Assembly: GCA_016201465.1 (NCBI GenBank)
Contig: JACQCV010000022.1
Span: 1-45,154, forward strand
Reading direction: 5' to 3'
Source of the DNA: Candidatus Vogelbacteria bacterium
Lineage (GTDB): Bacteria; Patescibacteriota; Minisyncoccia; Phycocordibacterales; UBA12445
DNA: 45,154 bases
The position numbers were made by a program, and so were the translations under genes. Positions 12,296-44,137 of the stretch are shown piece by piece. Under the pieces are notes generated by a model. The model saw only the letters and a program-made list of their open reading frames with translations. It ran no database searches and had not been told where the DNA came from. Each line of letters begins with the position of its first letter. Within the stretch, counting starts at the first letter, position 1.

Positions 12296-15200
12296 ATGAC
12301 CCCGTATTATTTGAACAGAAAAGAGGGCGGCAGAATTGTAACTCTTTTTTCTCGGCTACTGATCTTGGTCGGTATTTTTCTCTTACCCATAGATATTATT
12401 TTTGCTTCGTCTGGTGTCCCTAAAATCTTGTCCCATCAAGGTAGGCTGCTTGATTCCAGTGCAAACCTTCTCGGAGGCAGCGGTACAAACTATTGTTTTC
12501 GTTTTTCCATATATGACGCCGTTTCCAATGGTAATAAATTGTGGCCAGGTGGTACTCCATCTAATATGACTGTTCTGGTAAAGAATGGTATTTATAATGT
12601 TGATATTGGTGATACAAATGTGGGTGGCGATTCCTTGAGCCTGGATTTCAATGATGATTCTTATTATTTGAATATTGCGATAGCTAACTCATCGAACGGA
12701 TCTTGTGCGGGCGTGACATCGTTCGAGACACTTTCTCCGCGTAAGCATATTACGTCTTCGGGCTATGCAATAAATTCCGGATTGTTAAATGGTCAAGCGG
12801 CAAGTTACTATCTAGACGCGAATAATTTAAATAACTTTGGTCAGTTATTCAATAGCCTGCTTAGTGGAACAACTACACTTCCAAATCTTGTTTCTTTGCC
12901 TAATCTAACTTCTATCGGTACTCTTTCCTCTCTGGCGGTGTCTGGTACCATTACTCTTGGTGGTCACCCTTTGACTTTCCCATCCGGCAGCGGTTCAAAT
13001 GGTGATATGTTAACTACAAACGGTAATGGAAGTCTCTCGTGGACATCATTATTGAATGTATCACATGGAGGAACTGGTTTGGCTTCTTACTCTACAGGTG
13101 ACATACTATATGCGTCAGATGATTCTACTTTGGCTGCGCTTCACAAAGGAGGCGAGGGTTCTGTTCTTAAAATTTTAGGTGGTGTCCCTGTCTGGGGTGT
13201 TGATCTTACTTCTGGTGAAGGTGGCGGATCAAGTTCCTGGGCTACCACAACAGATAATTTGTCCATAATTGAAAATGACCCAACACAGGTCGTTGTAGTT
13301 GGATCAACCGCGACCTCTTCTACTGGCTATATTTTTGAGGTGTCTGGTGCGGGCATAAATGGCAAACGAGCCCTCATTCCTTATGCCTCTACTACTATGG
13401 TTACGGCAACAACGGCTTCTACCACCGAATTAATAGTTAGTAAAATACTCACATTACCAAACAACTCAATCTCTGATTCCGCCCTATCTTCTAATGTAGC
13501 TTTACTTAATGGAGGACAAACATTTACAACTCTCACTGGCTCAGGCGCTTTAACGATAACAGGTCTTTCGTCACTAAACGGAGGAGCCTCAACAACGAAC
13601 ATCTCCGCCTCTGGGACAATGTGGACAGGTGGATTATCAACAACGACTGGTGGTGTTATTAACACTCAAACTAAGTACCAGATTGCAGGGGTTGATATCT
13701 TAACTTCTAATACCCTAGGTTCGGGTATTGTAACTTCATCTTTAACCACAGTGGGCGCTCTCACTTCTGGTTCGATTGCTTCTAGTTTCGGATCAATCAA
13801 TATCGGTTCAAATGCTATTACGGCGGGGGCAGGAACTTTCACGTCTGTTACAGATAGCGGCTTAACTTCTGGAAGGATTCCATTTGCTACGGCGGGGGGC
13901 CAACTTACCGACAACTCGAGGTTGGCATGGAATAATTCGACCAATGTTCTTACTGTCAATGGAGTTCTTGCAATATCCGGAATGACTACTGGCTCTATTC
14001 CTTTCGCTACGGCAGGTGGTGCAATTGGACAGAACAATTCAAACTTTTTCTGGGATAATACAAATTCTCGTTTGGGTCTCGGAACAACATCTCCCTCACA
14101 AAGACTTTCTGTGGCCGGGAATGCACTTTTGTCTGGAGACTTAACTCTAGCTAATCTTACTGCCACCGGCACGATTACTGCCCCAAATTTTTCTGGAGCA
14201 TTGACGGGAAATGTTTCTGGCTCCGCTGCTACTGTAACTGGGGCCTCACAGTTTGCTATTACTACTTTGGCAAACTTATCAACGGTTGGTACTCTTACTT
14301 CAGGTTCGATTGGTTCGGGTTTTGGGCCTATCAATATCGGTTCATCAAGCCCTCTAACTGCTGGTATTGGGACATTTTCATCTGTTACTGTTAATGGCAC
14401 TCTTGCTGGCAACAGTTTGTCTATGCCTACTACCGAAAATATTGCCGGGGTAATTTCGACTGGATCCAACCAGTCACTGTCGTCACTGAATGGTGCTATA
14501 TATTGGGGGAAAAACAAATTGTCTTCAGATATATTCGATGAAACCAACTATAATTTTGGTGAAATATGGCAGAGTAGTAACTCTAATAGAGATTGGCAGG
14601 CAATGGCCCTGTCATCTAATGGTCAATATCAGACGGCTGTAGTAAATGGAGGACAAATTTATACTTCGTCAAACTCTGGTTCAACGTGGACAGCAAGGGA
14701 CTCCAATAGAATTTGGACATCGGTCACTGTATCTGCAAGTGGTCAATATCAAACCGCGGTCGCTATTACTGACCAAATTTATACATCATCAGATTATGGT
14801 GTCACCTGGACGGCTAGGGATTCTGATAGAAATTGGCAGGCTGTGGCCATGTCTTCGGATGGGTCAAGACAGACGGCGGTTGAATCTGGCGGACAAATTT
14901 ACGTATCTACAAATTATGGAGCCACCTGGACGGCTAATTTTAGCGCTCCTACAGTGGCTAACTGGCAGGCTGTGGCCATGTCAGCAAATGGTTTTTACCA
15001 GACTGCATTGGTAAGTAATGGGCAAATCTACACTTCCTTTAACTACGGAGTCACGTGGACGGCAAGGGACTCAGGTAGAAATTGGTCTTCTGTTGCAATG
15101 TCCTCAACCGGACAATATCAGACAGCCGCTGTCTTCGGGGGGTCAATTTATATGTCGACAAACTATGGGATAAATTGGTATGCAAATACTACAGCACCTT

Positions 15201-18200
15201 CAAGTGGTAATTGGGTGTCTGTGGCTGTGTCTGGTAACGGTTCTAATCAGTGGGCACTTCAAAGTGGAGGAGTACCATATGTGACCATTGATAGAAGTCA
15301 TTGGACAAAGCCATTTTTAAGTGAACCGAATAGAAATTGGATTGCAGTGGCTATATCTCCGGATATTACTGGTTCAAAAGTAAGTGCGGCGGTAAATGGT
15401 GGTCAGGTTTTTCTATCCTCATGGGTGGGTACGATGTATTCTCCACCAACTTCCAACGATCCTGGTCGTTACTGGACATCGGTAGCAATGTCTGCTGATG
15501 GTTCTAGACAAATAGCAGTCGAATTTGGTGGCAATGTGTATACTTCTTCTGATTTTGCAAATTCGTGGATATCTAGAGGAAATTATAACGCATGGAAAGC
15601 CGTAGCAATGTCTGCTGATGGTTCGAGACAAATGGCGGTAACTAATAATGGCGGTGGTACTGGATACATATATACCTCTTTGGATTATGGTGTGAACTGG
15701 ACACAAAGAAATTCAAATAGAAACTGGGCATCCTCTGTTGCTATATCAGCAGACGGATCAAGACAGACGGCGGCCGTATTTGGAGGTCAAATTTATACAT
15801 CATCAGATTATGGTGTCACCTGGACGGCTAGGGATTCTGATAGAAATTGGCAGGCTGTGGCCATGTCTTCGGATGGGTCAAGACAGACGGCGGTTGAATC
15901 TGGCGGACAAATCTATACATCTTCAGATTACGGCGTGACGTGGACAGCGAGAGATTCTAGTCGTTCGTGGAACACAGTCGCAATGTCTTCGGATGGATCA
16001 AGGCAAACGGCCCTAGCAAATAGCGGACAAATCTATACATCTTCAGATTACGGCGTGACGTGGACAGCGAGGGGTCTCTCTGGTCCTTGGCAATTTGTAG
16101 CAATGTCTGCGGACGGCTTGAGACAGGCGGCAATACAAAATAATGGCAATACAAGTATTGGTGCGCTATATATTTCCAAGGATTATGGCACAACCTGGTC
16201 ACTAAGTGATTCAACTCACAAATGGAGTTTTGTCGCGATATCTGCTGATGGTTCGAGAATGACGGCTGGCGAGTTTAATAATGGACGCCTATATACCTCT
16301 CTTGCCGAAAAGAAGGTATTTACTGGCAGTATCATTAGAACTAGTACCATGACCAGCGCGTCTAGTGTACAAATTCAAGATAGCGGCGGTCATACTTTAC
16401 TACAGGCCACCGGAGATGGTAGAACACAATTTGTAGTAAAGCCAGGGGTTCCTGATGCATTTCAGCTGTTAACAAACTTCCAGAATAAGGTGATTCCAGT
16501 CTTTACAATTGGTACCACCGTTTCAGGCTCGACTATTAAGGGTAGAGCTGTGAGTAACCTCAGTGGTATGTCATTTGGAAATGATGCAATTGGTTACGAT
16601 GACTATTTGGACGGTGTACACGCCTCTACGACTGTTGGTGGTATAAATTATACTGCGTCATCAGGTGGTATTGCTGGTAATAATATTCATGTTGCAATTG
16701 TTGAGCCAGGTAGTGATGGTCAGTTGTCTGTTGGCAGGGACGGTTTAAACGTTACTGTCATTTTAGCAAAAGATAGTGGTGCTGTATCATCTACAATTGC
16801 TGATGTGGTAAGCGCCGTTAATGGAGACGATTCGGCAAGTGCAGTTATGTCTGCTATCGCAACCGGAGACGATTCAGTTATAGCTTCTGCTATCGCAACC
16901 TCAACTCTTTCTGGAGGAGAGACTGATGCCACTTTCAGCGGATTTTTGACTGTTGCCAAGACCAGCACTTTCACCGGCCTTGCCTCGTTTGTTGGAGGCG
17001 CCTCAACTACTAACTTGACAGTGGCATCAAATTCTACCTTAACTGGTAATGTTGGGGTTGGTGGAGATTTACACGTGGGATCTGTAAGAAATAATAGTTT
17101 TGAAACTGGCACGTTTTCTGGCTGGTCTGTTCTTTCTGGAAATGCATTTAGCCACCCAGTTGCGGGAACTTGTGCTAATCAAAATGCAGTTAGTGGTTAT
17201 GATGGTAAATATCTAATTAACTCTTATTGCGATGTTGATGGGAATGGTAACGATACGCTCACTGGAGTCATAAGATCCGACACCTTCGTTTTAACAGGTC
17301 CGAAGGTTAAATATCTTATTGGGGGAGGTAATGATATTACAAATTTAAAAGTTGAAATAGTTCGAGCGTCGGATGATGAGGTTATAAATGCCGATACTCA
17401 TACAGAAGGAGGTAGTGAACATTTAGATTCACATACCATTGATCTTTCCCCGTATGTAAATAATAGGGTTTATATAAAAATAACAGATAATGATCAGGGT
17501 GGTTGGGGCCACATCTTATTCGATGATTTTAGGCAGTTGGACAGTAATAATAATGTCATAGATAATGTTGGTCCAGTGTTTTCTGTTGGCAACCTCGGGC
17601 TCTATCTTGACAGTAGTAATAATTTTTCTATCGGTACAAGCACATTGTTTGCCTCTTCTAACGGCAATCTGGGTATAGGCACGACTACTCCTTCTAACAA
17701 ACTTGTTATGTCTGGAGGTAATTTCTTACAGGTGGCGAGTGGTAATCTGACCAGAAAGGGTTTTATAAGTTACGGTGCTGGTAATAGTGTTTACGTCAGC
17801 GGAAAATATGCATACATTGCTAATGGGGGAGATGATAGAGTTGTAGATATTTCAGATCCGACAAATCCGGTTGAGGTTACATCAGTGGGAGCTGGTGGTA
17901 ATGCTGCGGGGGTCTTTGTCGCCGGGAAGTATATGTATGTTGCTAACGGCGGTGGAGGTAATGGTGGTCTTGTTGTTTACGACGTCTCTGACTTATCAGT
18001 TGCACCAATACCTAAGATTAGTAATTTGCTTGATTTTGCTCAAAATGCAGAAAATGTTTTTGTGGCTGGTAAATATGCGTACGTAGCTTCGGGCCCAGGG
18101 CTTTCCATTATGGATGTCTCTGACCCATACAATTTAAAAGAGGTTTCTGGTACTGGTTTTGACTGTGGAGCCGCATCTCGCAAAGGTGTTTATGTTGACG

Positions 18201-19903
18201 GTAAGTTTGCTTATTTGACATCCGATGGGAATAATGATAGTTGCCCTGGAGGTAATAATAATGCTGGGCCCAAGTATTTGAAGTTTAATGTTTCTGATCC
18301 TCTACATCCACAACAGGTTGGTAATGCCAATCTTCCTGCTGCTGCCTTTGGGCTATATGCAAGTGGTAAGTATGTTTATGTTGCTGACGGAACCGCTGGT
18401 TTGCAGATTGTAAATGCTCTCGACGATAGTATTGTTGGTAGTTATGACACAAATGGAACATCCTACAACGTAAAAGTGGCAGGGAATTACGCTTATGTGG
18501 CGGACGGCTCAAATGGTCTTGTTGTTCTCGATGTATCTAATCCTGTCTCACCAGTTTTGGTTGGTACTTACACTTCTTCTGGTACGGTATATGACGTGTC
18601 TATAAGCGGTAAGTATGCGTACATTACTGGTACAGCAGGTCTTGAGACAATTGATATAAATGGTATAGATGTGCCGGCAATAAATACCGGGTCGCTATTT
18701 GCAAACAATTTGGGCATAGCTAATGATCTCGATGTTGCCAATAATCTGAATATCCATAATAGCTTGAACATTGGAATCGGAGGACTATATTCGACTGGAC
18801 CGTTTGCAATATCTGGTAATGCCACTTCAACTTTAATTGGAGCTTTGGCTGGTGCTTCGGGTGATCTTACTATTGCACGAGGCGGTGTGGGTAATTTAAT
18901 TCTCAACCCCTATGGTGGTAACGTTGGTATTGGTACTAACTCTCCAACACAACCTCTTGCTATGGCCTCCGGTGCTTATGTTACGGCTGGTGGCACATGG
19001 ACCAACGCCTCTAGTCGCGACTTGAAGGAGAACTTTACAACCCTAGACCCAGAAGCCGTACTGGAACAAATAAATCAATTAGCTATCCCGCGTTGGAACT
19101 ACAAAAACGAAGCAACAACAACTACGCACATAGGTCCGATAGCTCAAGATTTTTATTCAATATTCGGTCTAGGTGGTACCACTACTGGTTCGATATCTAT
19201 TTCGACAATAGATCCCGCTGGCGTTGCTCTTCTGGGGATTCAGGGTTTGTCCAAAAGGTTAAATGAGTTGGCAGTGAGTATCGGATCTACAACAGCCACT
19301 CTTTCGTCAGAAAAACTTGTTTATAGTAAACTGGAGGTTGATAGTGCGTCTATTAAATCAGCTGAAATATCTAATCTTAAGATATTGAACTCACTAATCA
19401 TGGAAGATCGGGTGACGGGTGATAGGTACTGTGTTTATATTGAGAACGGAGAGTGGGCAAAGTCTAGGGGTGATTGTGATATTAATGATAATAAAAATTC
19501 CAACAATATATCATCAATAATCTCAACCTCAGTCGAGACTGCTCCTTCTTTTGTCTCAGCTAGCACCGCATTTTCCACATCAACAGATAGAGAAGCTCCA
19601 GTTTTAACATTACTTGGTGATGCAACGTCTACTCTCAAGGTTGGTGATAATTTTGTTGATCCTGGGTCTGTGGTTACGGATAACGTGGATCAAAATCTGG
19701 GAGTAAAAGTTACTGGTTTGGTTGACACAAGTAAGGCCGGGATTTATACGCTCTATTATGATGCGATTGACAATGCGGGTAATAACGCCACACAGTTAAG
19801 TAGGGTAGTGACCATTGTGGATTCAACTCATTCGGATCTGTCCGGAATATTGTTACCTAATCCTAACGCCACTAGCTCCGTTGGTAGTGTTCTGGCGTGG
19901 TAA
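12296..19903 (+). CDS. Giant (2535 aa) multidomain surface protein: N-terminal anchor, tail-fibre-like Gly/Thr/Ser repeats, 14 BNR/Asp-box blades, lectin-like module, LVIVD repeats, peptidase-S74 intramolecular chaperone module, DUF5011-like Ig domain
   Basis: A single uninterrupted 7.6-kb ORF. Its domain signatures are listed as separate features below. Confidence 0.9.
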   Translation: MTPYYLNRKEGGRIVTLFSRLLILVGIFLLPIDIIFASSGVPKILSHQGRLLDSSANLLGGSGTNYCFRFSIYDAVSNGNKLWPGGTPSNMTVLVKNGIYNVDIGDTNVGGDSLSLDFNDDSYYLNIAIANSSNGSCAGVTSFETLSPRKHITSSGYAINSGLLNGQAASYYLDANNLNNFGQLFNSLLSGTTTLPNLVSLPNLTSIGTLSSLAVSGTITLGGHPLTFPSGSGSNGDMLTTNGNGSLSWTSLLNVSHGGTGLASYSTGDILYASDDSTLAALHKGGEGSVLKILGGVPVWGVDLTSGEGGGSSSWATTTDNLSIIENDPTQVVVVGSTATSSTGYIFEVSGAGINGKRALIPYASTTMVTATTASTTELIVSKILTLPNNSISDSALSSNVALLNGGQTFTTLTGSGALTITGLSSLNGGASTTNISASGTMWTGGLSTTTGGVINTQTKYQIAGVDILTSNTLGSGIVTSSLTTVGALTSGSIASSFGSINIGSNAITAGAGTFTSVTDSGLTSGRIPFATAGGQLTDNSRLAWNNSTNVLTVNGVLAISGMTTGSIPFATAGGAIGQNNSNFFWDNTNSRLGLGTTSPSQRLSVAGNALLSGDLTLANLTATGTITAPNFSGALTGNVSGSAATVTGASQFAITTLANLSTVGTLTSGSIGSGFGPINIGSSSPLTAGIGTFSSVTVNGTLAGNSLSMPTTENIAGVISTGSNQSLSSLNGAIYWGKNKLSSDIFDETNYNFGEIWQSSNSNRDWQAMALSSNGQYQTAVVNGGQIYTSSNSGSTWTARDSNRIWTSVTVSASGQYQTAVAITDQIYTSSDYGVTWTARDSDRNWQAVAMSSDGSRQTAVESGGQIYVSTNYGATWTANFSAPTVANWQAVAMSANGFYQTALVSNGQIYTSFNYGVTWTARDSGRNWSSVAMSSTGQYQTAAVFGGSIYMSTNYGINWYANTTAPSSGNWVSVAVSGNGSNQWALQSGGVPYVTIDRSHWTKPFLSEPNRNWIAVAISPDITGSKVSAAVNGGQVFLSSWVGTMYSPPTSNDPGRYWTSVAMSADGSRQIAVEFGGNVYTSSDFANSWISRGNYNAWKAVAMSADGSRQMAVTNNGGGTGYIYTSLDYGVNWTQRNSNRNWASSVAISADGSRQTAAVFGGQIYTSSDYGVTWTARDSDRNWQAVAMSSDGSRQTAVESGGQIYTSSDYGVTWTARDSSRSWNTVAMSSDGSRQTALANSGQIYTSSDYGVTWTARGLSGPWQFVAMSADGLRQAAIQNNGNTSIGALYISKDYGTTWSLSDSTHKWSFVAISADGSRMTAGEFNNGRLYTSLAEKKVFTGSIIRTSTMTSASSVQIQDSGGHTLLQATGDGRTQFVVKPGVPDAFQLLTNFQNKVIPVFTIGTTVSGSTIKGRAVSNLSGMSFGNDAIGYDDYLDGVHASTTVGGINYTASSGGIAGNNIHVAIVEPGSDGQLSVGRDGLNVTVILAKDSGAVSSTIADVVSAVNGDDSASAVMSAIATGDDSVIASAIATSTLSGGETDATFSGFLTVAKTSTFTGLASFVGGASTTNLTVASNSTLTGNVGVGGDLHVGSVRNNSFETGTFSGWSVLSGNAFSHPVAGTCANQNAVSGYDGKYLINSYCDVDGNGNDTLTGVIRSDTFVLTGPKVKYLIGGGNDITNLKVEIVRASDDEVINADTHTEGGSEHLDSHTIDLSPYVNNRVYIKITDNDQGGWGHILFDDFRQLDSNNNVIDNVGPVFSVGNLGLYLDSSNNFSIGTSTLFASSNGNLGIGTTTPSNKLVMSGGNFLQVASGNLTRKGFISYGAGNSVYVSGKYAYIANGGDDRVVDISDPTNPVEVTSVGAGGNAAGVFVAGKYMYVANGGGGNGGLVVYDVSDLSVAPIPKISNLLDFAQNAENVFVAGKYAYVASGPGLSIMDVSDPYNLKEVSGTGFDCGAASRKGVYVDGKFAYLTSDGNNDSCPGGNNNAGPKYLKFNVSDPLHPQQVGNANLPAAAFGLYASGKYVYVADGTAGLQIVNALDDSIVGSYDTNGTSYNVKVAGNYAYVADGSNGLVVLDVSNPVSPVLVGTYTSSGTVYDVSISGKYAYITGTAGLETIDINGIDVPAINTGSLFANNLGIANDLDVANNLNIHNSLNIGIGGLYSTGPFAISGNATSTLIGALAGASGDLTIARGGVGNLILNPYGGNVGIGTNSPTQPLAMASGAYVTAGGTWTNASSRDLKENFTTLDPEAVLEQINQLAIPRWNYKNEATTTTHIGPIAQDFYSIFGLGGTTTGSISISTIDPAGVALLGIQGLSKRLNELAVSIGSTTATLSSEKLVYSKLEVDSASIKSAEISNLKILNSLIMEDRVTGDRYCVYIENGEWAKSRGDCDINDNKNSNNISSIISTSVETAPSFVSASTAFSTSTDREAPVLTLLGDATSTLKVGDNFVDPGSVVTDNVDQNLGVKVTGLVDTSKAGIYTLYYDAIDNAGNNATQLSRVVTIVDSTHSDLSGILLPNPNATSSVGSVLAW
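14774..14898 (+). repeat. 125-bp exact intragenic direct repeat, copy 1 (partner at 15788..15912)
   Basis: caaatttatacatcatcagattatggtgtcacctggacgg...ggcggacaaat reads identically at both sites by eye. Confidence 0.85.
15788..15912 (+). repeat. 125-bp exact intragenic direct repeat, copy 2
   Basis: See copy 1. Both copies encode QIYTSSDYGVTWTARDSDRNWQAVAMSSDGSRQTAVESGGQI. Confidence 0.85.
15903..15951 (+). repeat. 49-bp exact intragenic repeat, copy 1 (partner at 16023..16071)
   Basis: gcggacaaatctatacatcttcagattacggcgtgacgtggacagcgag occurs at both sites. Confidence 0.85.
16023..16071 (+). repeat. 49-bp exact intragenic repeat, copy 2
   Basis: See copy 1. Confidence 0.85.
17770..18670 (+). 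other. Domain: LVIVD-type beta-propeller repeats
   Basis: Recurrent G-KYAYVA-G..GL-V-DVS-P units. An example is AGNYAYVADGSNGLVVLDVSNPVSPVLVG. Confidence 0.7.
19010..19290 (+). other. Domain: peptidase S74 / tail-spike intramolecular chaperone (auto-cleaving) module
   Basis: SSRDLKENFTTLDPEAVLEQINQLAIPRWNYKNEATTTTHIGPIAQDFYSIFGL...IDPAGVALLGIQGLSKRLNEL matches the S-DR-LKENI ... hiG-iAQe ... coiled-coil pattern of endosialidase/tail-fibre chaperone domains. Confidence 0.8.
19588..19825 (+). other. Domain: DUF5011-like bacterial Ig module at the extreme C-terminus
   Basis: REAPVLTLLGDATSTLKVGDNFVDPGSVVTDNVDQNLGVKVTGLVDTSKAGIYTLYYDAIDNAGNNATQLSRVVTI. Confidence 0.6.
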
Positions 19904-21706: not shown

Positions 21707-21778
21707 GGTGGCTATGGTGTAGCGGTAGCACACGAGCTTGTGGAGCTCTTAGTCTGGGTTCAACTCCCAGTAGCCACC
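21707..21778 (+). tRNA. tRNA-His (anticodon GUG) with encoded G-1; CCA not encoded
   Basis: Folded by hand. G-1 (21707) pairs with C73 (21778). Acceptor GTGGCTA/TAGCCAC and D stem GTGT/GCAC. Anticodon loop TTGTGGA has GTG at 21740-21742. T arm is CTGGG-TTCAACT-CCCAG. Confidence 0.85.
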
Positions 21779-22108
21779 CCTTGAAAGACTACTAGCTAGT
21801 TCTAGTAGCAAGTTGTAAGGGGAACGTAAGGTAAACTCTAAGTTTTTTCCATTTACTGTTGGGTTCTGAAGTATGTAATTCAAGAATTGCCTCTTTTCAC
21901 TTGGTTCAGAACTCTCAAATATAGACTTAGCTCTACGAGCGATATAAAACACTGTAGCTACCGTGGTTTGATAATCATGGTCAGCTTTTGTGTGTTCTTC
22001 TAGTTCTATGTTCAAGAGCTGTATCTTGTCGTGGTAGTCCTGGTGCCTTTTGTCATACATGTCCTTAGTAATACGCCATAAGAAAGTTATTTTTCTAAAT
22101 AAAAGCCT
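21749..22108 (-). pseudogene. C-terminal remnant of a large serine recombinase, abutting or overlapping the 3' end of tRNA-His
   Basis: ITKDMYDKRHQDYHDKIQLLNIELEEHTKADHDYQ...ARRAKSIFESSEPSEKRQFLNYILQNPTVNGKNLEFTLRSPYNLL matches the coiled-coil/C-terminal tail pattern of recombinase-family proteins. No catalytic N-terminal domain is present. The first 25 codons of the track ORF are just antisense translation of the 260-bp repeat. Confidence 0.5.
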
Positions 22109-22109
22109 T

Positions 22110-22369
22110 AAAATAAGCCTTTTCTCACCAACCCATTGACAAAACATATAATAGTATGCTATACTTTCGCTAGATAAAAACAATAAAAAGCTAGCTCTTC
22201 ACATCAAATAAAAGTTCAAAAACCTTGATGCGCATCCCAACGTGGAGGCATCATATACCTCGATTAAATTCGAGGGGAAGGAGCTGTCATCATGACGGTA
22301 CATGAGACTGTCGCCGACGGCAAACTTGGGAACGAGGAGCTTGGTCAATTCACCCGCAAGGTGGACGAA
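22110..22369 (+). repeat. 260-bp direct repeat, left copy: promoter, ~125-nt leader and the first 26 codons of the 204-aa ORF
   Basis: Near-identical to 43808..44068. Differences are about 10 substitutions or indels, clustered just after the -10. Confidence 0.9.
22136..22165 (+). promoter_or_regulatory. Consensus promoter TTGACA, 18 nt spacer, TATACT
   Basis: TTGACA at 22136-22141 and TATACT at 22160-22165. Downstream leader hairpins are tgatgc...gcatca and cctcga-ttaaat-tcgagg, just before the SD GGAAGGAG. Confidence 0.6.
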
Positions 22370-22906
22370 ATCAAGCGACGCCTCAACGAAGGAACGATTA
22401 CCCTCTCTTGGGCACTGAATGAGCTTCAGCGCATCATCGAGGGTCGTCAGTCCGTGAGCGACCTGGTCATCGACTTCGACGCCACGCCCATGATTCCGTC
22501 GGGCTTGGAAATCCGAGAGTCCGACCAAATCGCATCCCGCTTCAAGGGCAAGTGGACCTTCAATGCGAAGGCACTCGCTCTCTACCTCTCCAAGAAGCAG
22601 AAACAGGGCAAGCTCATCAAGGGCCATGACCTCAAGGACGACCTCGACGGCGAGAAGGTCATGGGAGCACAGCTTCTCGACTTCTACCTGAAGAACCCGC
22701 ACCTCATCCCCGACGAATGGAAGGGGAAGGCCACGTTCTTCTGGGGAACCATCTACCGCGGCTCGTTCGGGGACCTCTGCGTCCGCTACCTGTACTGGAG
22801 TGGCAAGGCGTGGGACTCGGACTACAACTGGCTGGACAACAACTTCAACGATACGAACCCCGCGTTGCTCGCTAATCTCTTCATTTCTCCTCTGGCTTTT
22901 TGCTAG
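22292..22906 (+). CDS. Candidate DGR variable (target) protein; GC-rich 204-aa ORF with an Asn/Asp/Tyr/Trp-rich C-terminus
   Basis: Line 22401-22460 is 36/60 G+C. The C-terminus is FFWGTIYRGSFGDLCVRYLYWSGKAWDSDYNWLDNNFNDTNPALL. Position is next to avd and RT. The last ~12 codons (from ~22872) are AT-rich and are antisense to the avd 3' end. Confidence 0.5.
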   Translation: MTVHETVADGKLGNEELGQFTRKVDEIKRRLNEGTITLSWALNELQRIIEGRQSVSDLVIDFDATPMIPSGLEIRESDQIASRFKGKWTFNAKALALYLSKKQKQGKLIKGHDLKDDLDGEKVMGAQLLDFYLKNPHLIPDEWKGKATFFWGTIYRGSFGDLCVRYLYWSGKAWDSDYNWLDNNFNDTNPALLANLFISPLAFC

Positions 22907-23317
22907 GGGAGTTTTGTTTACTCTGGGCTATGTCGAGAGGCTTAACTTTAACCTCCTCAACCTTTCTTGTAACCTGCCCATTCCACCCTCCAAGCATCTT
23001 TCCTATCTCATTGAGTGGCATGGAAACAGCAATATATTTATTGTTATCTAAAGACTTTGTTTCCCAGAGGACCATGAGTAATATCTTTAATGTATCTGTC
23101 TTCCTAATAGCTATTCTAATCCAAGGTTGTTTCTCCTCTTTAGATAAGAAGCTGGCAATCGCTATAGATTCGATAATTTCTATGAATAAGGCATCAATTC
23201 TTTGTCCCAGAGAATGTCTATGGTCCTTAGGTAATACCTGGTAGTATCCATACCATAAGATATATACACTCTTAACCCTTTGTAGCAGGGGTAGAATCGG
23301 GGGGGGGGTAACTTCAT
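22881..23317 (-). CDS. avd: DGR accessory variability determinant (Avd, four-helix-bundle family), interrupted by a frameshift in a C10 tract
   Basis: Hand translation of the minus strand gives ATG(23317) AAG TTA C10. The long frame after the tract reads ILPLLQRVKSVYILWYGYYQVLPKDHRHSLGQRIDALFIEIIESIAIASFLSKEEKQPWIRIAIRKTDTLKILLMVLWETKSLDNNKYIAVSMPLNEIGKMLGGWNGQVTRK. This is Avd-like, including the EIGxxLGGW signature. The span is 437 nt, which is not a multiple of 3. C11 or C8 would restore a 145-aa ORF. Confidence 0.7.
23299..23308. repeat. G10/C10 homopolymer inside the avd 5' end, 22 nt upstream of the RT start codon
   Basis: cgg gggggggg ta, counted directly. It is the longest G/C run I saw in this AT-rich window. 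Confidence 0.95.
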
Positions 23318-23329
23318 GGTTTTATTTAT

Positions 23330-24343
23330 ATGACCAACAGAATCAAATTTATTCATAACTACGATACTATCATTTCTCTCGAAAATTTGCTTGAAGCCTG
23401 GAAAGAGTTTCGAAACAACAAAAAATCTCGAAAAGATGTCCAAGAATTTGAAAGAAACTTGATGGAGAATATATTATTGCTCCACAAAGAACTCCTAACA
23501 AAAACCTATAAACATTCTTCTTATGAAGCTTTTAACATTTCTGACCCTAAACCAAGGAGGATACACAAGGCGAAGGTCCGAGATAGACTACTTCACCACG
23601 CCATATACAGAAAACTGTATCCCTTCTTTGATAAGACATTTATAGCTGACTCTTACTCGTGTCGTTTCGAGAAGGGGACCCATAAGGCTTTAGAAAGATT
23701 TCATTCTTTTTCTCAAAAGGTTTCAGGTAATAGGACCAAAGCCGTCTGGGTTCTCAAGTGTGACATACGAAAATTCTTTGCTTCAATAGACCAAAGTATT
23801 CTCATCGGAATCGTTAAGGAGTATGTATCAGATCAAAATATCACCTGGCTTATTTCAGAAATCGTTTCTAGTTTTCATTCGACGAAGGAAGGCGTCGGCT
23901 TGCCCTTAGGGAATTTAACCTCCCAACTTCTCGTAAATGTATACATGAATAAATTTGACCAATTTATGAAGCATAGGGTTAAGGCCAAATATTACATTCG
24001 TTATGCCGACGACTTTGTGATTATGTCTCAAGATAGAAAGTGGCTTGAAGAAGTATTAATTAAAATCAAGAAGTTTCTACATGAGAAGCTTAAATTAGAA
24101 TTACATCCGAACAAAGTCTCAATCGAAACACTATCTTCGGGGGTAGATTTTCTTGGTTGGGTTAACTTTCCAGACCATAGAGTTATGAGAACAACGACTA
24201 AGAAGAGGATGTTTAGAAATATTAAGACTAGAGAAGGGAAGCCCGAGGTTGTTCAATCCTATCTTGGACTCTTGAGTCATGGAAATGGGAAGAGGTTGCA
24301 GGATGGGATAGCTAAATTAAATACACAAGTTGGTAATAAGTGA
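23330..24343 (+). CDS. Diversity-generating retroelement reverse transcriptase
   Basis: Motifs SLENLLEAWKEF, DPKPRRIHKAKVRDRLLHHAIY, SYSCRFEKGTHKAL, LKCDIRKFFASIDQ and FLGW. GLPLGNLTSQLLVNVYMN carries the DGR-specific [LI]GxxxSQ (LGNLTSQ at 23906-23926). YIRYADDFVI has YADD at 24002-24013. Confidence 0.9.
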   Translation: MTNRIKFIHNYDTIISLENLLEAWKEFRNNKKSRKDVQEFERNLMENILLLHKELLTKTYKHSSYEAFNISDPKPRRIHKAKVRDRLLHHAIYRKLYPFFDKTFIADSYSCRFEKGTHKALERFHSFSQKVSGNRTKAVWVLKCDIRKFFASIDQSILIGIVKEYVSDQNITWLISEIVSSFHSTKEGVGLPLGNLTSQLLVNVYMNKFDQFMKHRVKAKYYIRYADDFVIMSQDRKWLEEVLIKIKKFLHEKLKLELHPNKVSIETLSSGVDFLGWVNFPDHRVMRTTTKKRMFRNIKTREGKPEVVQSYLGLLSHGNGKRLQDGIAKLNTQVGNK

Positions 24344-26554: not shown

Positions 26555-26727
26555 CTAAACCACAGTGTTAATTAGGTTGGGGTAAAACGTCGGAATATAT
26601 ATTGTTGCATCATTCCTTCGCTCAAAAATAGTTCTAACATCCTCTACCACGGCACCCAGCGTTATTTTTCTTAAATAAATCGTTATCGTGTTTAGACTTT
26701 TTAGTTCTAACCTGGTAAGCTTTTGGT
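26555..26727. repeat. Inter-cassette repeat, copy 1 (~155 bp, runs up to the ATG of the cupin gene)
   Basis: 26574-26727 is almost identical to 27745-27898. The minus strand carries a 62-aa ORF (26555..26743) ending ...GAVVEDVRTIFERRNDATIYIPTFYPNLINTVV*. Confidence 0.85.
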
Positions 26728-27033
26728 ATGGAAAATTTATCAAACGATGCTGTAAGTATAGCTCCCCATTTACACAAGGTTATATTGGAAAATGATAAGG
26801 TTCGTGTACTTGATGTACTAGTTAAACCTGGGGACAAAGCAGAGATGCACACTCATCCCGCTAACGTCGGAATCGTTACACAAGCAGGTACATTAAATAT
26901 TACTTTTGAAGATGGAACGAATAAAGAAGTTAAACTTGAAAAGGGAGCAATCAACTTTTCTGGCCCCAACAAACATATGGTTGAAAATAAAGGGACAGAG
27001 GAGGTGCGAGTTATACAGGTGGAGTTAAAATAA
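26728..27033 (+). CDS. Cupin-domain protein
   Basis: GDKAEMHTHPANVGIVTQAG...FSGPNKHMVENKGTEEVRVIQVE shows cupin_2-type motifs. Confidence 0.7.
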   Translation: MENLSNDAVSIAPHLHKVILENDKVRVLDVLVKPGDKAEMHTHPANVGIVTQAGTLNITFEDGTNKEVKLEKGAINFSGPNKHMVENKGTEEVRVIQVELK

Positions 27034-27725: not shown

Positions 27726-27898
27726 CTAAACAATAGCGTATTGCAGGGTGGGGTAAAACGTCGGAATATATATTGTTGCATCATTCCTTCGCTCAAAAAT
27801 AGTTCTAACATCCTCTACCACGGCACCCAGCGTTATTTTTCTTAAATAAATCGTTATCGTGTTTAGACTTTTTAGTTCTAACCTGATAGACTTTTCGT
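27726..27898. repeat. Inter-cassette repeat, copy 2 (runs up to the ATG of the methyltransferase gene)
   Basis: See copy 1. The minus-strand tail reads ...FYPTLQYAIV*, with its stop at 27726-27728. That is the same offset (26 nt before GGTAAAA) as in copies 1 and 3. Confidence 0.85.
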
Positions 27899-28729
27899 AT
27901 GAAAGATTATAAGTACGACAAAATCACTCCAACTGCAGATTTGATTTCCTACTTCAGGACTTTTTCTGATATTCCGTACACTAAAGAGATTGCCGAAATC
28001 ACGGGTGCTGAAGAAATAGCGAGGAAGATTTTAGGCGAACATTTCAAAGATAGTATGTTTCTAGCTCCGATATCAGAAGTGCGCTATAAGAGGATAGATA
28101 TTCAAGCACAAAAATATAAAAACATTCTTGAGGTGGCTGTCGGGCGTTCCCCAAGAGATTTAATTTTTACAGAAAACCCAGAAATCAGTTATGTCGCAAC
28201 AGATTTATCAGATTCACTTAATAATCACGAAACGATTATTAAAGAGTTAATGGCTAGACATAAACTCAAAAGACCAAATTTATATTTTGCATCAGTCAAT
28301 GCGTTAGAGAGTGTGGATTTCAATAAAGCATCTGATTTATTACCAGAAGGTCCTGTCGCAATAATCTCAGAAGGTTTTATGGTTTATTTATCCAAGGAAG
28401 AGAAACAGATATTTCTGAAAAATGTTTTAGAAATCCTTATTAAAAGAGGAGGATGTTTGATAACCTCGGATATTAATTTTACAAAAAGAAGTAATATTGC
28501 AGCTGGTATTATGGATTCAATTTCCTCTACTGCTGGTAGAGATATGAGAGATTTGAGTTTTGATAATGCTGAGGACGCTAAAAACTTTCTATCTGAAGCG
28601 GGCTTTGATTCAGAGATTGTTTCCGACCCAATTGACGTGGTTTCTGTTAAAGAACTGAAATTAGAAAATGACCCTCAGACAGAGCGAGTTATGAGTTTTC
28701 CAGTCTGGGTCCTTACACCTAGGAAATAG
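27899..28729 (+). CDS. Class I SAM-dependent methyltransferase (leucine carboxyl/O-methyltransferase-like)
   Basis: ILEVAVGRSPRDL, VATDLSD and ISEGFMVYLSKEE indicate a Rossmann methyltransferase pattern. Confidence 0.6.
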   Translation: MKDYKYDKITPTADLISYFRTFSDIPYTKEIAEITGAEEIARKILGEHFKDSMFLAPISEVRYKRIDIQAQKYKNILEVAVGRSPRDLIFTENPEISYVATDLSDSLNNHETIIKELMARHKLKRPNLYFASVNALESVDFNKASDLLPEGPVAIISEGFMVYLSKEEKQIFLKNVLEILIKRGGCLITSDINFTKRSNIAAGIMDSISSTAGRDMRDLSFDNAEDAKNFLSEAGFDSEIVSDPIDVVSVKELKLENDPQTERVMSFPVWVLTPRK

Positions 28730-28811
28730 TGAATTGTGGGGTAGGGTAAAAGGCAGGAATATAGATTGTCGCATCATTTCTTCTCTCAAAAATAGTTCTG
28801 ATATCCTCTAC
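28719..28811. repeat. Inter-cassette repeat, copy 3 (diverged, partial)
   Basis: It aligns to copies 1 and 2 over ~70 nt with 9 substitutions. On the minus strand it translates as GAVVEDIRTIFERRNDATIYIPAFYPTPQFTIS*. Confidence 0.8.
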
Positions 28812-28901
28812 CACGGCACCCTAGTAGGAATTTTGCTCAATATGTCAATCATGATAACAATTTTAATCATTTTAGCAACCCAATATTAGAAAAAGTATAC
28901 A

Positions 28902-42085: not shown

Positions 42086-43795
42086 ATGACTCAGAACGAG
42101 GCAATTTCGATACTTAAGACCGGTGCGAACGTATTTATAACCGGCGAGCCAGGTTCAGGTAAAACACATGTTGTAAATCAGTACGTCAGATATCTGGATA
42201 ATCACGGCGTTGAAGTCTCTGTTACAGCATCGACTGGTATTGCCGCTACCCACATAGGTGGACTAACAATACATTCTTGGAGTGGAATTGGTATTAAAGA
42301 TAGATTAACTTCTCATGATCTTGATCGAATTGCTTCGACCGAATATATAGCTAAGAGAGTTGGGCGTTCCAAGGTTCTTATAATCGATGAGGTTTCGATG
42401 CTCTCGCCAGAGATTTTGACTATGGTTGATATGGTTTGTCAAGAAATAAAGCAAAGAGAGTCTCCGTTTGGAGGCCTACAAGTTATTTTAGTTGGCGACT
42501 TTTTCCAGCTTCCGCCTGTAGTTAGAGTCAATTCAGACGAAGGTTCACAAATCTCTTTATTAGATGAAGAGGGAACCACAAATCGGTTTGCCTTTTGTTC
42601 ATCAGTTTGGGCCAAAGCCGGTTTGACTACTTGTTATCTGACCGAGCAGTATCGCCAAGATGATCAGGTTTTTCTTTCAATACTTTCCGCAATACGAAAA
42701 AATACATTTGGCGGGGAACACTTGAAACATCTTAATAAACGGAAAGTTTTACCGAATGCTATGCCGTCAAATGTACCGAAACTTTTTTCACACAATGTAA
42801 ATGTTGATACTGTTAACGACGCGACACTTGAGAGAATCAAGGATAAAAAGGAAATTTTTCAGATGATGTCAAGTGGACACGATGCTTTAGTTGCAATTTT
42901 AAAGAGAGGGTGTCTTTCGCCTGAAACACTTGCTCTTAAATTGGGAGCCGAAGTAATGTTTACTAAAAATAGCCAACAAGAGGGCTATGTGAATGGAACA
43001 TTGGGAACGGTTATCGGATTTGAGAGTGATAGACGATATCCGAAGATCAAATTAAGAAATGGAAAAATTTTGACTGTTGAACCGACAGAATGGATTGTCG
43101 AAGAGAACGGTAAGATTAAGGGTAAGATCGTCCAGATCCCGCTCCGTTTGGCCTGGGCGATAACAGTTCACAAAAGCCAGGGGATGAGTATGGATGAAGC
43201 GATCATGGATCTCTCTAGAGTCTTTGAATATGGTCAGGGATATGTGGCACTTTCACGGGTACGTAGATTATCCGGACTTTACCTCTTGGGCTGGAACGAG
43301 CGTGCCTTTAAAGTGCATCCGGACATTTTGACTAAAGATGAAGAGTTTAGGATAAGTTCAGAAGCTGCTCGTGAAGGTTTCGCTAAGATGAATCAAAATG
43401 AGCTAACTGAGATGCATAATAATTTTATAATCGCCTCGGATGGGAGTTTAAATGCTTTGAAAAAATCAAAGACGGGCGAAATCAAAGAGCAAGATACAAA
43501 ATTAATTACCCTGGAGCTTTGGAAACAAAATAAGAGTGTTCCAGATATTGCTAAGATTAGAAGAGTTAAGGTGCAAACAATTTTTTCACATATTGAGGAT
43601 TTAGTTGAAAAGGGAAGAATAGATCGTGACGATTTAAGAGCGACTCTTTCTCCAGATGCTCTGAGGGATTTGGTGAAAATCCACGCCGCTTTCAGAGATC
43701 TTGCTACTGATCGGCTCACACCTGTGTATAAAAAGTTTAACGAAAAGTATTCGTTCGAGGACATCCGTATTGCGAGGATGTTGTTAATTAGGTAG
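42086..43795 (+). CDS. Pif1/RecD-like superfamily-1 DNA helicase with a C-terminal HTH-like domain
   Basis: Walker A GEPGSGKTH and Walker B LIIDEVSML. Also VGDFFQLPPV, EQYRQ, ITVHKSQGMSMD and YVALSRVR. Confidence 0.85.
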   Translation: MTQNEAISILKTGANVFITGEPGSGKTHVVNQYVRYLDNHGVEVSVTASTGIAATHIGGLTIHSWSGIGIKDRLTSHDLDRIASTEYIAKRVGRSKVLIIDEVSMLSPEILTMVDMVCQEIKQRESPFGGLQVILVGDFFQLPPVVRVNSDEGSQISLLDEEGTTNRFAFCSSVWAKAGLTTCYLTEQYRQDDQVFLSILSAIRKNTFGGEHLKHLNKRKVLPNAMPSNVPKLFSHNVNVDTVNDATLERIKDKKEIFQMMSSGHDALVAILKRGCLSPETLALKLGAEVMFTKNSQQEGYVNGTLGTVIGFESDRRYPKIKLRNGKILTVEPTEWIVEENGKIKGKIVQIPLRLAWAITVHKSQGMSMDEAIMDLSRVFEYGQGYVALSRVRRLSGLYLLGWNERAFKVHPDILTKDEEFRISSEAAREGFAKMNQNELTEMHNNFIIASDGSLNALKKSKTGEIKEQDTKLITLELWKQNKSVPDIAKIRRVKVQTIFSHIEDLVEKGRIDRDDLRATLSPDALRDLVKIHAAFRDLATDRLTPVYKKFNEKYSFEDIRIARMLLIR

Positions 43796-43807
43796 AAGGT
43801 ATCTTGT

Positions 43808-44068
43808 AAAATAAGCCTTTTCTCACCAACCCATTGACAAAACATCTAATAGTATTCTATACTCTGTTCAGATAAAAATAATAAAAAGCTAGCTCTTCAC
43901 ATCAAATAAAAGTTCAAAAAACCTTGATGCGCATCCCAACGTGGAGGCATCATATACCTCGATTAAATTCGAGGGGAAGGAGCTGTCACCATGACGGTAC
44001 ATGAGACTGTCGCCGACGGCAAACTTGGGAACGAGGAGCTTGGTCAATTCACCCGCAAGGTGGACGAA
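43808..44068 (+). repeat. 260-bp direct repeat, right copy
   Basis: See the left copy at 22110..22369. Confidence 0.9.
43834..43863 (+). promoter_or_regulatory. Second copy of the TTGACA, 18 nt spacer, TATACT promoter
   Basis: TTGACA at 43834-43839 and TATACT at 43858-43863. Confidence 0.55.
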
Positions 44069-44125
44069 TCCCAGTCTCACCCCACGTCGGTAACGGCGTG
44101 GGTTTTTCTTTTTTTAAATTTGTAA
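43991..44125 (+). pseudogene. Truncated second copy of the 204-aa ORF (26 shared codons plus 18 unrelated codons)
   Basis: It encodes MTVHETVADGKLGNEELGQFTRKVDE, identical to 22292.., then SQSHPTSVTAWVFLFLNL*. At 44 aa it falls below the ORF-track cutoff. Confidence 0.6.
44081..44115 (+). terminator. Rho-independent terminator
   Basis: cccacgtc-ggtaac-ggcgtggg followed by TTTTTCTTTTTTT. Confidence 0.8.
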
Positions 44126-44137
44126 TAGAATGGTTAG

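Follow-up and report, generated by a model that had tools for sequence, protein, structure and literature searches.

The diversity-generating retroelement (DGR) of Bordetella phage BPP-1 consists of mtd with its variable repeat (mtd-VR), avd, TR (the template repeat), as well as the reverse transcriptase (RT) gene brt; Handa et al. in 2018 reportedly described its genes as all co-directional and a functional RNA spacer as lying downstream of TR. In bacteria of the candidate phyla radiation (CPR), 90% of DGRs have architecture B3, TR-(avd)-RT (Wu et al. 2018, PMC5758913), and one DGR clade restricted to Patescibacteria has targets without recognizable domains (DGR clade 2; Roux et al. 2021, PMC8144416). 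Here, we analyze a DGR in a 45,154-nt stretch of Candidatus Vogelbacteria DNA (contig JACQCV010000022.1 of assembly GCA_016201465.1; hereafter the window, numbered from its first letter), which an earlier, sequence-only reading had described as a DGR of noncanonical layout with an avd gene flipped by rearrangement and no visible TR. The only repeat copy of this locus is a hybrid, VR-like in its 5' half and TR-like in its 3' half and flank, and we favor the explanation that a deletion from VR into TR recently disabled an otherwise ordinary CPR element.

Architecture and Identity of the Element

A scan of species-representative genomes with the target protein family returned 80 loci, and their architecture was read by tblastn of the target, Avd, and RT proteins against all of them. 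Approximately 30 of these loci share one order: a target gene with VR on the plus strand, a gap of ~350 nt, TR on the plus strand, avd on the minus strand abutting or overlapping TR, and RT on the plus strand. The TR of these relatives appears as a second short target-like match on the same strand, covering query residues ~156-203, and the three closest relatives of the RT also have avd on the opposite strand, diverging from RT. VR/TR pairs are present in 27 loci, with a core of ~125-130 nt and a VR-to-TR gap of 244-370 nt. TR adenines account for 484 of their 782 summed mismatches; in alignments confined to the core nearly all mismatches fall at TR adenines, and the remaining ones belong mostly to longer alignments that cross into the flanks.

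The window has the same order, with the TR flank at 22875-22925 (plus strand), avd at 22881-23317 (minus strand), and RT at 23330-24343 (plus strand). The description of the layout as noncanonical therefore does not hold, given that ~30 relatives share this order and that B3 has been published (PMC5758913). Nor has avd been flipped by a rearrangement, because divergent avd and RT genes with TR beyond the 3' end of avd are found throughout the clade, in which a reversed avd is the norm. Judging from gene order and homology, the locus is by descent a standard B3 CPR DGR and not a new layout. It resembles other B3 elements in its reversed avd, which diverges from RT, in a TR that abuts the avd 3' end, in its Parcubacteria-group host, and in a short target that has no recognizable domain and carries its VR at the C terminus. 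It differs from them in having a single VR/TR hybrid copy, in lacking the spacer that holds the putative TR-RNA promoter and structured domain, and in a target that reads into the TR flank.

The RT gene (HY225_02245) is intact and encodes a protein of 337 aa in which the four motifs singled out by the sequence-only reading, LPLGNLTSQ, RYADDFVI, DPKPRRIHKAKVRDRLLHHA, and SYSCRFEKGTHKAL, are all present. The protein matches RVT_1 (E 7.5e-25), and its best solved relative in a search of PDB sequences is 8ub7_A, a chain of 328 aa (E 1.4e-45, 159 bits); the alignment spans residues 11-314 and takes in the IGSLTSQ / LGNLTSQ motif. We take this chain to be the Bordetella phage DGR RT on the basis of its sequence (IDQITTWENLLDAYRK..., IGSLTSQ, YMDDIVVL). 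RTs of the group II intron and retron types reach at most 75 bits in the same search. Among NCBIfam models, TIGR04416 scores 159.6 bits, under its cut-off of 300, and the retron and Drt models score far under theirs. A group II intron, retron, or defense RT was considered and rejected, as the family scores are under cut-offs and the Rfam scan detected no cognate RNA in the window. Thousands of relatives of this RT are encoded in CPR genomes (~70% identical, 84% and below), and it is 57-84% identical to relatives with proven VR/TR pairs. The match to 8ub7_A, the Avd profile matches given below, and a target family with genuine VR/TR pairs in 27 loci together bear out the identification of the element as a DGR.

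The minus-strand frame with the NEIGKMLGGW signature is open from 23306 to 22884, with its stop codon at 22881-22883. As had been anticipated for the repaired frame, Avd profiles match it, though each below its curated cut-off: NF033474 DivGenRetAVD (2.1e-16, 60 bits; cut-off 80) and PF22296 bAvd (6.3e-10, 39.9 bits; cut-off 40). The predicted protein is 44-73% identical to the Avd proteins of relatives across its full length. Read through the ten Gs at 23299-23308 (Cs on the avd strand), the ATG assigned to avd (23315-23317) does not share the Avd frame, as it would if the run had a length of 8 or 11; no in-frame ATG, GTG, or TTG start lies near the tract in the window. The open reading frame (ORF) coordinates agree with the earlier description of divergent avd and RT genes with start codons 12 nt apart, of a 26-nt overlap (22881-22906) between the avd 3' end and the ORF at 22292-22906, and of this ORF as GC rich (56.6% GC, compared with 41.5% for the window and 37% for the RT gene).

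With the BPP-1 element the locus shares an RT homologous over residues 11-314, the (I/L)GxxxSQ motif, and an Avd-family protein, and the adenine-specific mismatches and post-VR hairpins of that system are seen here in relatives. In contrast to BPP-1, this clade has a conserved, predicted structured RNA upstream of TR and downstream only a flank of ~45 nt with a terminator-like hairpin, and the Avd of the window is too diverged in sequence to match any PDB chain (nothing at E <= 1).

A Single Hybrid Repeat

The target gene (22292-22906, plus strand) abuts avd in the window alone among the 33 loci that have both avd and RT. The earlier failure to find a second copy of the segment 22750-22870 is confirmed, as 22650-22910 is unmatched on both strands of the 45-kb window. 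A diagonal scan of 22650-22910 in which a template A could match anything gave a best exact match of 29/50, which is at chance level, and a repeat finder also returned nothing, so that the window has only one copy and no TR/VR near-repeat pair with adenine mismatches. The conclusion that no TR is visible is correct in that there is a single repeat copy, but the 3' half of TR and its 3' flank are part of this copy.

The composition of the copy emerges from an alignment of 29 TRs and 84 VRs to the window, in which 26 columns are hypervariable, defined as A in at least 85% of TRs and variable in VRs, with 13 on each side of position 22822. On the 5' side (22755-22821, plus strand), the window has A at 5 of 13 positions; five is the mode of the 84 VRs, whereas the 29 TRs have 8-13, with 26 of them keeping 12-13. 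On the 3' side (22822-22874, plus strand), where the AAC codons are intact, the window has A at 12 of 13 positions, within the range of the TRs (11-13), and no VR among the 84 has more than 10. The difference in retention between the halves (5/13 vs. 12/13) has a Fisher p of 0.011, and the sole non-A site of the 3' half, 22854, is also non-A in the closest TR, that of locus L001.

The flank that follows (22875-22925, plus strand), which overlaps the 3' end of avd, is likewise of TR type, with identities of 0.45-0.88 to the 29 TR flanks and 0.14-0.51 to the 84 VR flanks. The sequence of 22869-22925, gctcgcTAATCTCTTCATTTCTCCTCTggctttttgctaggggagttttgttt, hardly differs from the flanks 3' of TR in L001 and L002, and it is unlike the VR flank of L002 (gctcgccaagtag...) or that of L005, the locus with the closest target homolog. 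A recipient VR 3' end, the side of the initiation of mutagenic homing sequence, with a hairpin downstream is missing from the window, in which the flank is of TR type; predicted hairpins downstream of VR are common in relatives, and the motif CCTTAGTCC, which belongs to an inverted repeat noticed on visual inspection downstream of VR in L001 and L002, does not occur in the window. Neither the 3' half nor the flank of VR is present, and the spacer is missing too. The single copy thus consists of a VR 5' half (~22755-22821), a TR 3' half (22822-22874), and the TR flank, because its 5' half is VR-like and its 3' half and flank are TR-like, and a deletion between direct repeats would leave exactly such a product. 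Target homologs end in ...PALLAS or ...PAALRAS, whereas the protein of the window carries an additional ...ANLFISPLAFC that is absent from all homologs, because its ORF reads into the TR 3' flank.

The Missing Spacer and the TR RNA of Intact Relatives

Most intact relatives score 140-290 bits against a profile of 29 spacers. At the DGR of the window this profile has no match, and in the window as a whole it gives a single weak hit, at 44035-44132 (E 0.28). In relatives, the spacer begins with hairpins and a terminator behind VR, followed by an extended -10-like motif, TGnTAnAAT. A domain of ~230 nt then lies directly upstream of TR (e.g., L001:650-909, L002:4190-4449, and L019:5549-5808); the window lacks it. 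For this domain, the RNAalifold prediction has 50 pairs in seven helices, 40 of the pairs with compensatory changes. In an independent count, 94.3% of cells are paired, compared with 76.7% in shuffled alignments and 40-48% with partners slid, and double-change cells number 279, compared with 82 +/- 10 in shuffles. No Rfam family matches the domain. The conserved upstream spacer with its promoter and structured RNA is a feature of B3 elements that we define here from the relatives and not from the literature.

Behind TR, a hairpin flagged as terminator-like (22887-22911 in the window, followed by a T-run at 22912-22919) lies ~15 nt past the repeat and overlaps the avd stop codon; across 30 TRs it has seven predicted pairs, five of them with compensatory changes. 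This hairpin and T-run (22887-22919) probably form the 3' end of the TR RNA, and the ~230-nt domain is probably its 5' part. Because a promoter-like motif and a structured domain precede TR and a conserved hairpin with a T-run ends it, we infer that the TR RNA of this clade would be a discrete transcript of ~400 nt composed of a structured 5' domain, TR, and a terminator hairpin. In the literature that could be searched, we found no description of the structured upstream domain, the hairpin that may end the TR RNA, or the length-variable tract considered below.

A Remnant of a Second Target Gene

A direct repeat of 260 bp, overlooked previously together with the tRNA-His gene described below and the TR type of the flank at 22875-22925, joins the DGR to a distant part of the window. 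Its first copy (22109-22369, plus strand) covers the target promoter, a leader of ~125 nt, and the first 26 codons of the target gene, and it is 93-99% identical to the second copy (43807-44068, plus strand), which has the promoter, leader, and 26 codons of a second target paralog. In the second copy, codon 26 is joined straight to a terminator piece (44068-44113, plus strand) that normally stands behind the target VR and is 89% identical to positions 88-134 of the L001 spacer (E 2.6e-11). Partial profile hits show that remote targets in relatives have only the first part of the spacer behind their VR. As codon 26 directly abuts a post-VR terminator, the sequence of copy 2 (43807-44113) identifies it as the remnant of a second target paralog that has lost its body and VR by internal deletion. 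No repeat explains the junction, which makes an assembly artifact at this site unlikely. Copy 2 is located between a Dda/PIF1-like helicase gene (42086-43795) and a gene that we take, from reading its N-terminal sequence by eye, to encode a FAD-oxidoreductase-like protein.

Origin of the Hybrid Repeat

In intact relatives, as we reconstruct them, VR would form the end of the target gene, with a hairpin and terminator behind it. The TR RNA would be a separate transcript, made from its own extended -10 promoter, and consist of a 5' domain of ~230 nt, a TR of ~125 nt, and a 3' hairpin with a T-run; avd would converge on TR from the opposite strand, and RT would diverge from avd. If the Bordetella phage DGR is a guide, RT and Avd would make a copy of the TR RNA that has errors at adenines, and this cDNA would replace VR. 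We hypothesize that in the window a deletion between the two direct repeats, with a crossover near 22821-22826, removed ~480 nt, from the 3' half of VR with its flank and terminator, through the TR promoter and structured RNA domain, to the 5' half of TR, and that it left a hybrid repeat fused in frame to the target ORF. The earlier suggestion that TR was lost in a rearrangement would then be close to the truth as to the loss, but the event would be a VR-by-TR deletion and not an inversion. A search of the literature for VR-by-TR deletion in DGRs found nothing specific.

We assign a probability of roughly 55% to a real VR-by-TR deletion in a B3 DGR, with the element recently disabled. The element is disabled as assembled, because it has no VR-type recipient end, no independent TR RNA, a gutted second paralog, and an avd start codon that is out of frame; we infer that in this form it could not rewrite its target gene and has lost mutagenic homing. 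What we observe is a hybrid repeat, a spacer that is missing, and an arrangement unique among relatives; a biological origin of the deletion is our interpretation. Several points weigh against this explanation. The contigs of L005 and L006, which encode the closest target homologs, end 31 and 83 nt past VR, and contigs that break at VR mark a region that is hard to assemble. No independent assembly of the organism was found, either by exact protein searches with the RT and with the ORF downstream of RT, which returned no record, or in a metagenome DNA scan with a degenerate 38-mer from the target body, which met only the L005 contig that was already known; VR may therefore have been collapsed onto TR in assembly or curation. 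Furthermore, the problem of the avd start is not specific to this locus: upstream of the tract, an in-frame ATG is missing in ~60% of relatives as well. The Avd frame is free of internal stops, and RT is fully intact. With both coding frames intact, the deletion, if real, must be recent, or the two proteins serve targets elsewhere in the genome. We rejected the avd frameshift as a sign of pseudogenization, because the tract and the missing in-frame ATG are common to most relatives.

The same observations lend themselves to an artifact of assembly or curation, in which the real genome would contain a complete B3 DGR and the assembler would have jumped from VR to TR through an identical stretch, dropping ~480 nt as an orphan contig. 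VR and TR are direct repeats ~90% identical, and VR heterogeneity tangles assembly graphs; together with the broken contigs of the closest target homologs, the intact RT and Avd frames, and a fused state met in only 1 of 33 loci, these properties make an artifact a possibility that we take seriously but find doubtful. A de Bruijn mis-join would need at least 21 bases identical between VR and TR right after 22820, the last VR-specific base, and hence a VR that kept A at seven or eight consecutive hypervariable sites, for which per-site retention frequencies give an estimate of ~0.1-0.2% per VR; no VR among the 84 keeps more than 10 of the 13 3' sites. Replication slippage or recombination, as a real deletion would involve, can use far shorter identity than an assembler k-mer. 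Copy 2 has undergone an internal deletion at a junction without an explaining repeat, which argues that real deletions of target sequence occur in this genome.

Two further explanations leave the system functional. The hybrid copy might itself serve as a template, with the target mRNA transcribed from the strong promoter at 22136-22165 and extending over the TR 3' half and the 3' hairpin, and with RT and Avd using it to diversify paralogs elsewhere in the genome in trans. The intact RT, the AAC codons kept in the TR 3' half, the intact 3' hairpin and flank, and the several target paralogs often present in genomes of the clade (two each in L009 and L045) would suit this proposal. However, the ~230-nt structured domain of the 29 intact relatives aligned is absent, no other locus examined has the arrangement, the sole other target copy in view is destroyed, and avd has no in-frame start at C10, and we judge the proposal improbable; among the novel readings of the locus, a target-TR fusion that works as a self-contained template is less likely than the tract-length switch described in the next section. 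Less probable still, and in our view very unlikely, are the options offered by the sequence-only reading, that a TR outside the window acts in trans on 22750-22870 or that inversion of avd removed TR. There is indeed no second repeat copy in the 45-kb window, and remote targets are known for DGRs (PMC5758913), but the flank comparison contradicts a TR acting in trans, as the repeat ends in a TR-type flank and hairpin and is thus without a recipient end. The orientation of avd is the norm of the clade, and in all intact relatives TR adjoins the avd 3' end, exactly where the hybrid copy sits.

The apparently aberrant element is thus an ordinary CPR DGR in a collapsed state, or one mis-assembled into it. 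VR-by-TR deletion would be a simple way for DGRs to die. DGR finders would mis-call its product as an RT without a TR, and a TR-type flank behind the repeat offers a practical test. The features found across the clade, namely the predicted structured RNA, the TR-RNA hairpin, the variable tract, and the GC-rich targets, are of more interest than the locus itself.

The Homopolymer Tract between avd and RT

The tract at 23299-23308 (G10 as read with RT, C10 as read with avd) lies in the same position in 28 of the related loci examined, the window included, as a run of 8-12 Cs in the sense of avd: 8 in seven loci, 9 in nine, 10 in nine (including the window), 11 in two, and 12 in one. The Avd frame always reads it as Pro-Pro(-Pro). 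In AT-rich genomes, a pure C run would not, in our estimation, be maintained by selection on proline codons alone. In a set of ten assemblies with an identical RT protein (P0209), the tract is G8 in three, G9 in two, G10 in one, G11 in three, and at least 12 in one, although errors in sequencing G-runs may make this variation look larger than it is; where a pairwise comparison was possible, ~370 nt upstream show no other difference. At this locus there are two upstream ATGs in two frames, so that of the lengths 8-12 only 10 leaves avd out of frame. A second set (P0189) has G10 in eight assemblies and G11 in two, and the P0188 lineage has no tract. An ATG at most 16 nt upstream of the tract is present in 13 loci, in frame in seven and out of frame in six. 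In many loci, a TTG or GTG just downstream of the tract is a possible avd start; the window has neither.

On the RT strand, T stands right behind the tract in 25 of 29 loci, and a TAnnnT hexamer does so in 14 of 29, compared with roughly 3% expected by an estimate from base composition. In the window, this -10-like hexamer is TAACTT (23309-23314, plus strand), 15 nt before the RT ATG; across loci the RT ATG follows the tract by 12-27 nt, and by exactly 13 nt in seven. This arrangement suggests a putative RT promoter whose spacer contains the tract and whose leader is very short or missing, which would explain how divergent genes with start codons 12 nt apart are expressed, each promoter lying inside the other gene.

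Homopolymer contingency loci contain poly-C or poly-G tracts in promoters, as in Bordetella fim and Neisseria porA and opc, or in coding 5' ends. The tract here is similar in that it is a G/C run of 8-12 nt at the avd 5' end, directly upstream of the RT -10-like hexamer, in that its length appears to differ between otherwise identical strains, and in that upstream ATGs are in or out of frame depending on length. We tentatively propose, as a possibility that we hold to be less than even, that the tract is a conserved hypermutable switch of DGR activity in CPR bacteria. It would encode the N-terminal Pro-Pro-Pro of Avd downstream of short ATG-led frames, and as it lies in the 5' end of the Avd coding sequence, slippage would shift the reading frame of avd on or off; on the opposite strand, the tract would occupy the spacer of a short-leader RT promoter, immediately upstream of its -10-like element. 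Targeted hypermutation would then be toggled by tract length in a subpopulation, amounting to phase variation of a mutator, and the C10 of the window would be an "off" state. In contrast to the established loci, the downstream TTG or GTG of many loci here could uncouple avd translation from tract length, and part of the apparent length variation may be sequencing error at G-runs. Our search of the literature turned up nothing specific on homopolymer tracts in DGRs. Should the tract control Avd or RT, hypermutation in these symbionts with tiny genomes would itself be phase variable.

The Target Gene Family

The target ORF, recorded as HY225_02235 in the Candidatus Vogelbacteria metagenome-assembled genome, belongs to a family of proteins of ~190 aa found throughout Patescibacteria, with 148 homologs, nearly all of them from this group. 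Neither Pfam nor NCBIfam has a match to it, and its profile returned only noise against PDB sequences. The AF2 model has a pLDDT of 88; in a Foldseek search with this model, the best PDB match is not significant (E 0.23), and C-type lectin carbohydrate-recognition domains are matched weakly, with a target-normalized TM of ~0.4. Target genes of the family are GC rich relative to their surroundings in 72 of 80 loci, by a mean of 10 points, and the target of the window has 79% GC at third codon positions. Several target paralogs are common in genomes of the clade, and the window has remnants of two.

The target gene is preceded by a promoter-like site, TTGACA-18-TATACT (22136-22165, plus strand), with TG before the second hexamer and 11 of 12 consensus matches. 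By alignment, this promoter and the leader behind it are also present in L005 and L006. The leader of ~125 nt from promoter to start codon (22166-22291 and 43864-43990 in the window) is conserved in all four places and contains small hairpins, e.g., CCTCGATTAAATTCGAGG. It has no Rfam match and may be a regulatory 5' untranslated region, judging by its conservation. In L005, an rve integrase is encoded just upstream of the target gene.

Loci L092 and L088, which have the same RT protein (P0189), differ only by 17 mismatches clustered at locus positions 267-337. Presumably this cluster marks the target VR, in which case the pair would directly document natural activity of a related DGR.

Gene Neighborhood

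A tRNA-His (GTG) gene (21708-21780, plus strand) is the left neighbor of the element (ARAGORN; Rfam RF00005, 60.5 bits), and the Rfam scan of the window detected two tRNAs and nothing else. An ORF of 144 aa on the minus strand (21749-22183) overlaps the tRNA 3' end and extends into the 260-bp repeat. It may mark an integration beside tRNA-His. We considered it as a C-terminal fragment of a serine recombinase and rejected this candidate for want of support, as Pfam, NCBIfam, and PHROG have no match; tblastn gave only two weak matches to unannotated phage sequences. The ORFs that flank the DGR have no convincing PHROG matches that would indicate a phage context.

Downstream of the DGR, a repeat of 97-183 nt is present in three copies (26555-26737, 27726-27908, and 28725-28821), which are 86-92% identical and stand between small ORFs at a spacing of ~1.0-1.2 kb. 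Upstream, an ORF of 2535 aa (12296-19903) contains many repeats of ~40 residues (...GGQIYTSSDYGVTWTARDS.R.W..VAMSSDGSRQTA...) and DNA repeats with a period of 120 nt at 14.6-16.3 kb; this architecture suggests that it may encode a large surface protein.

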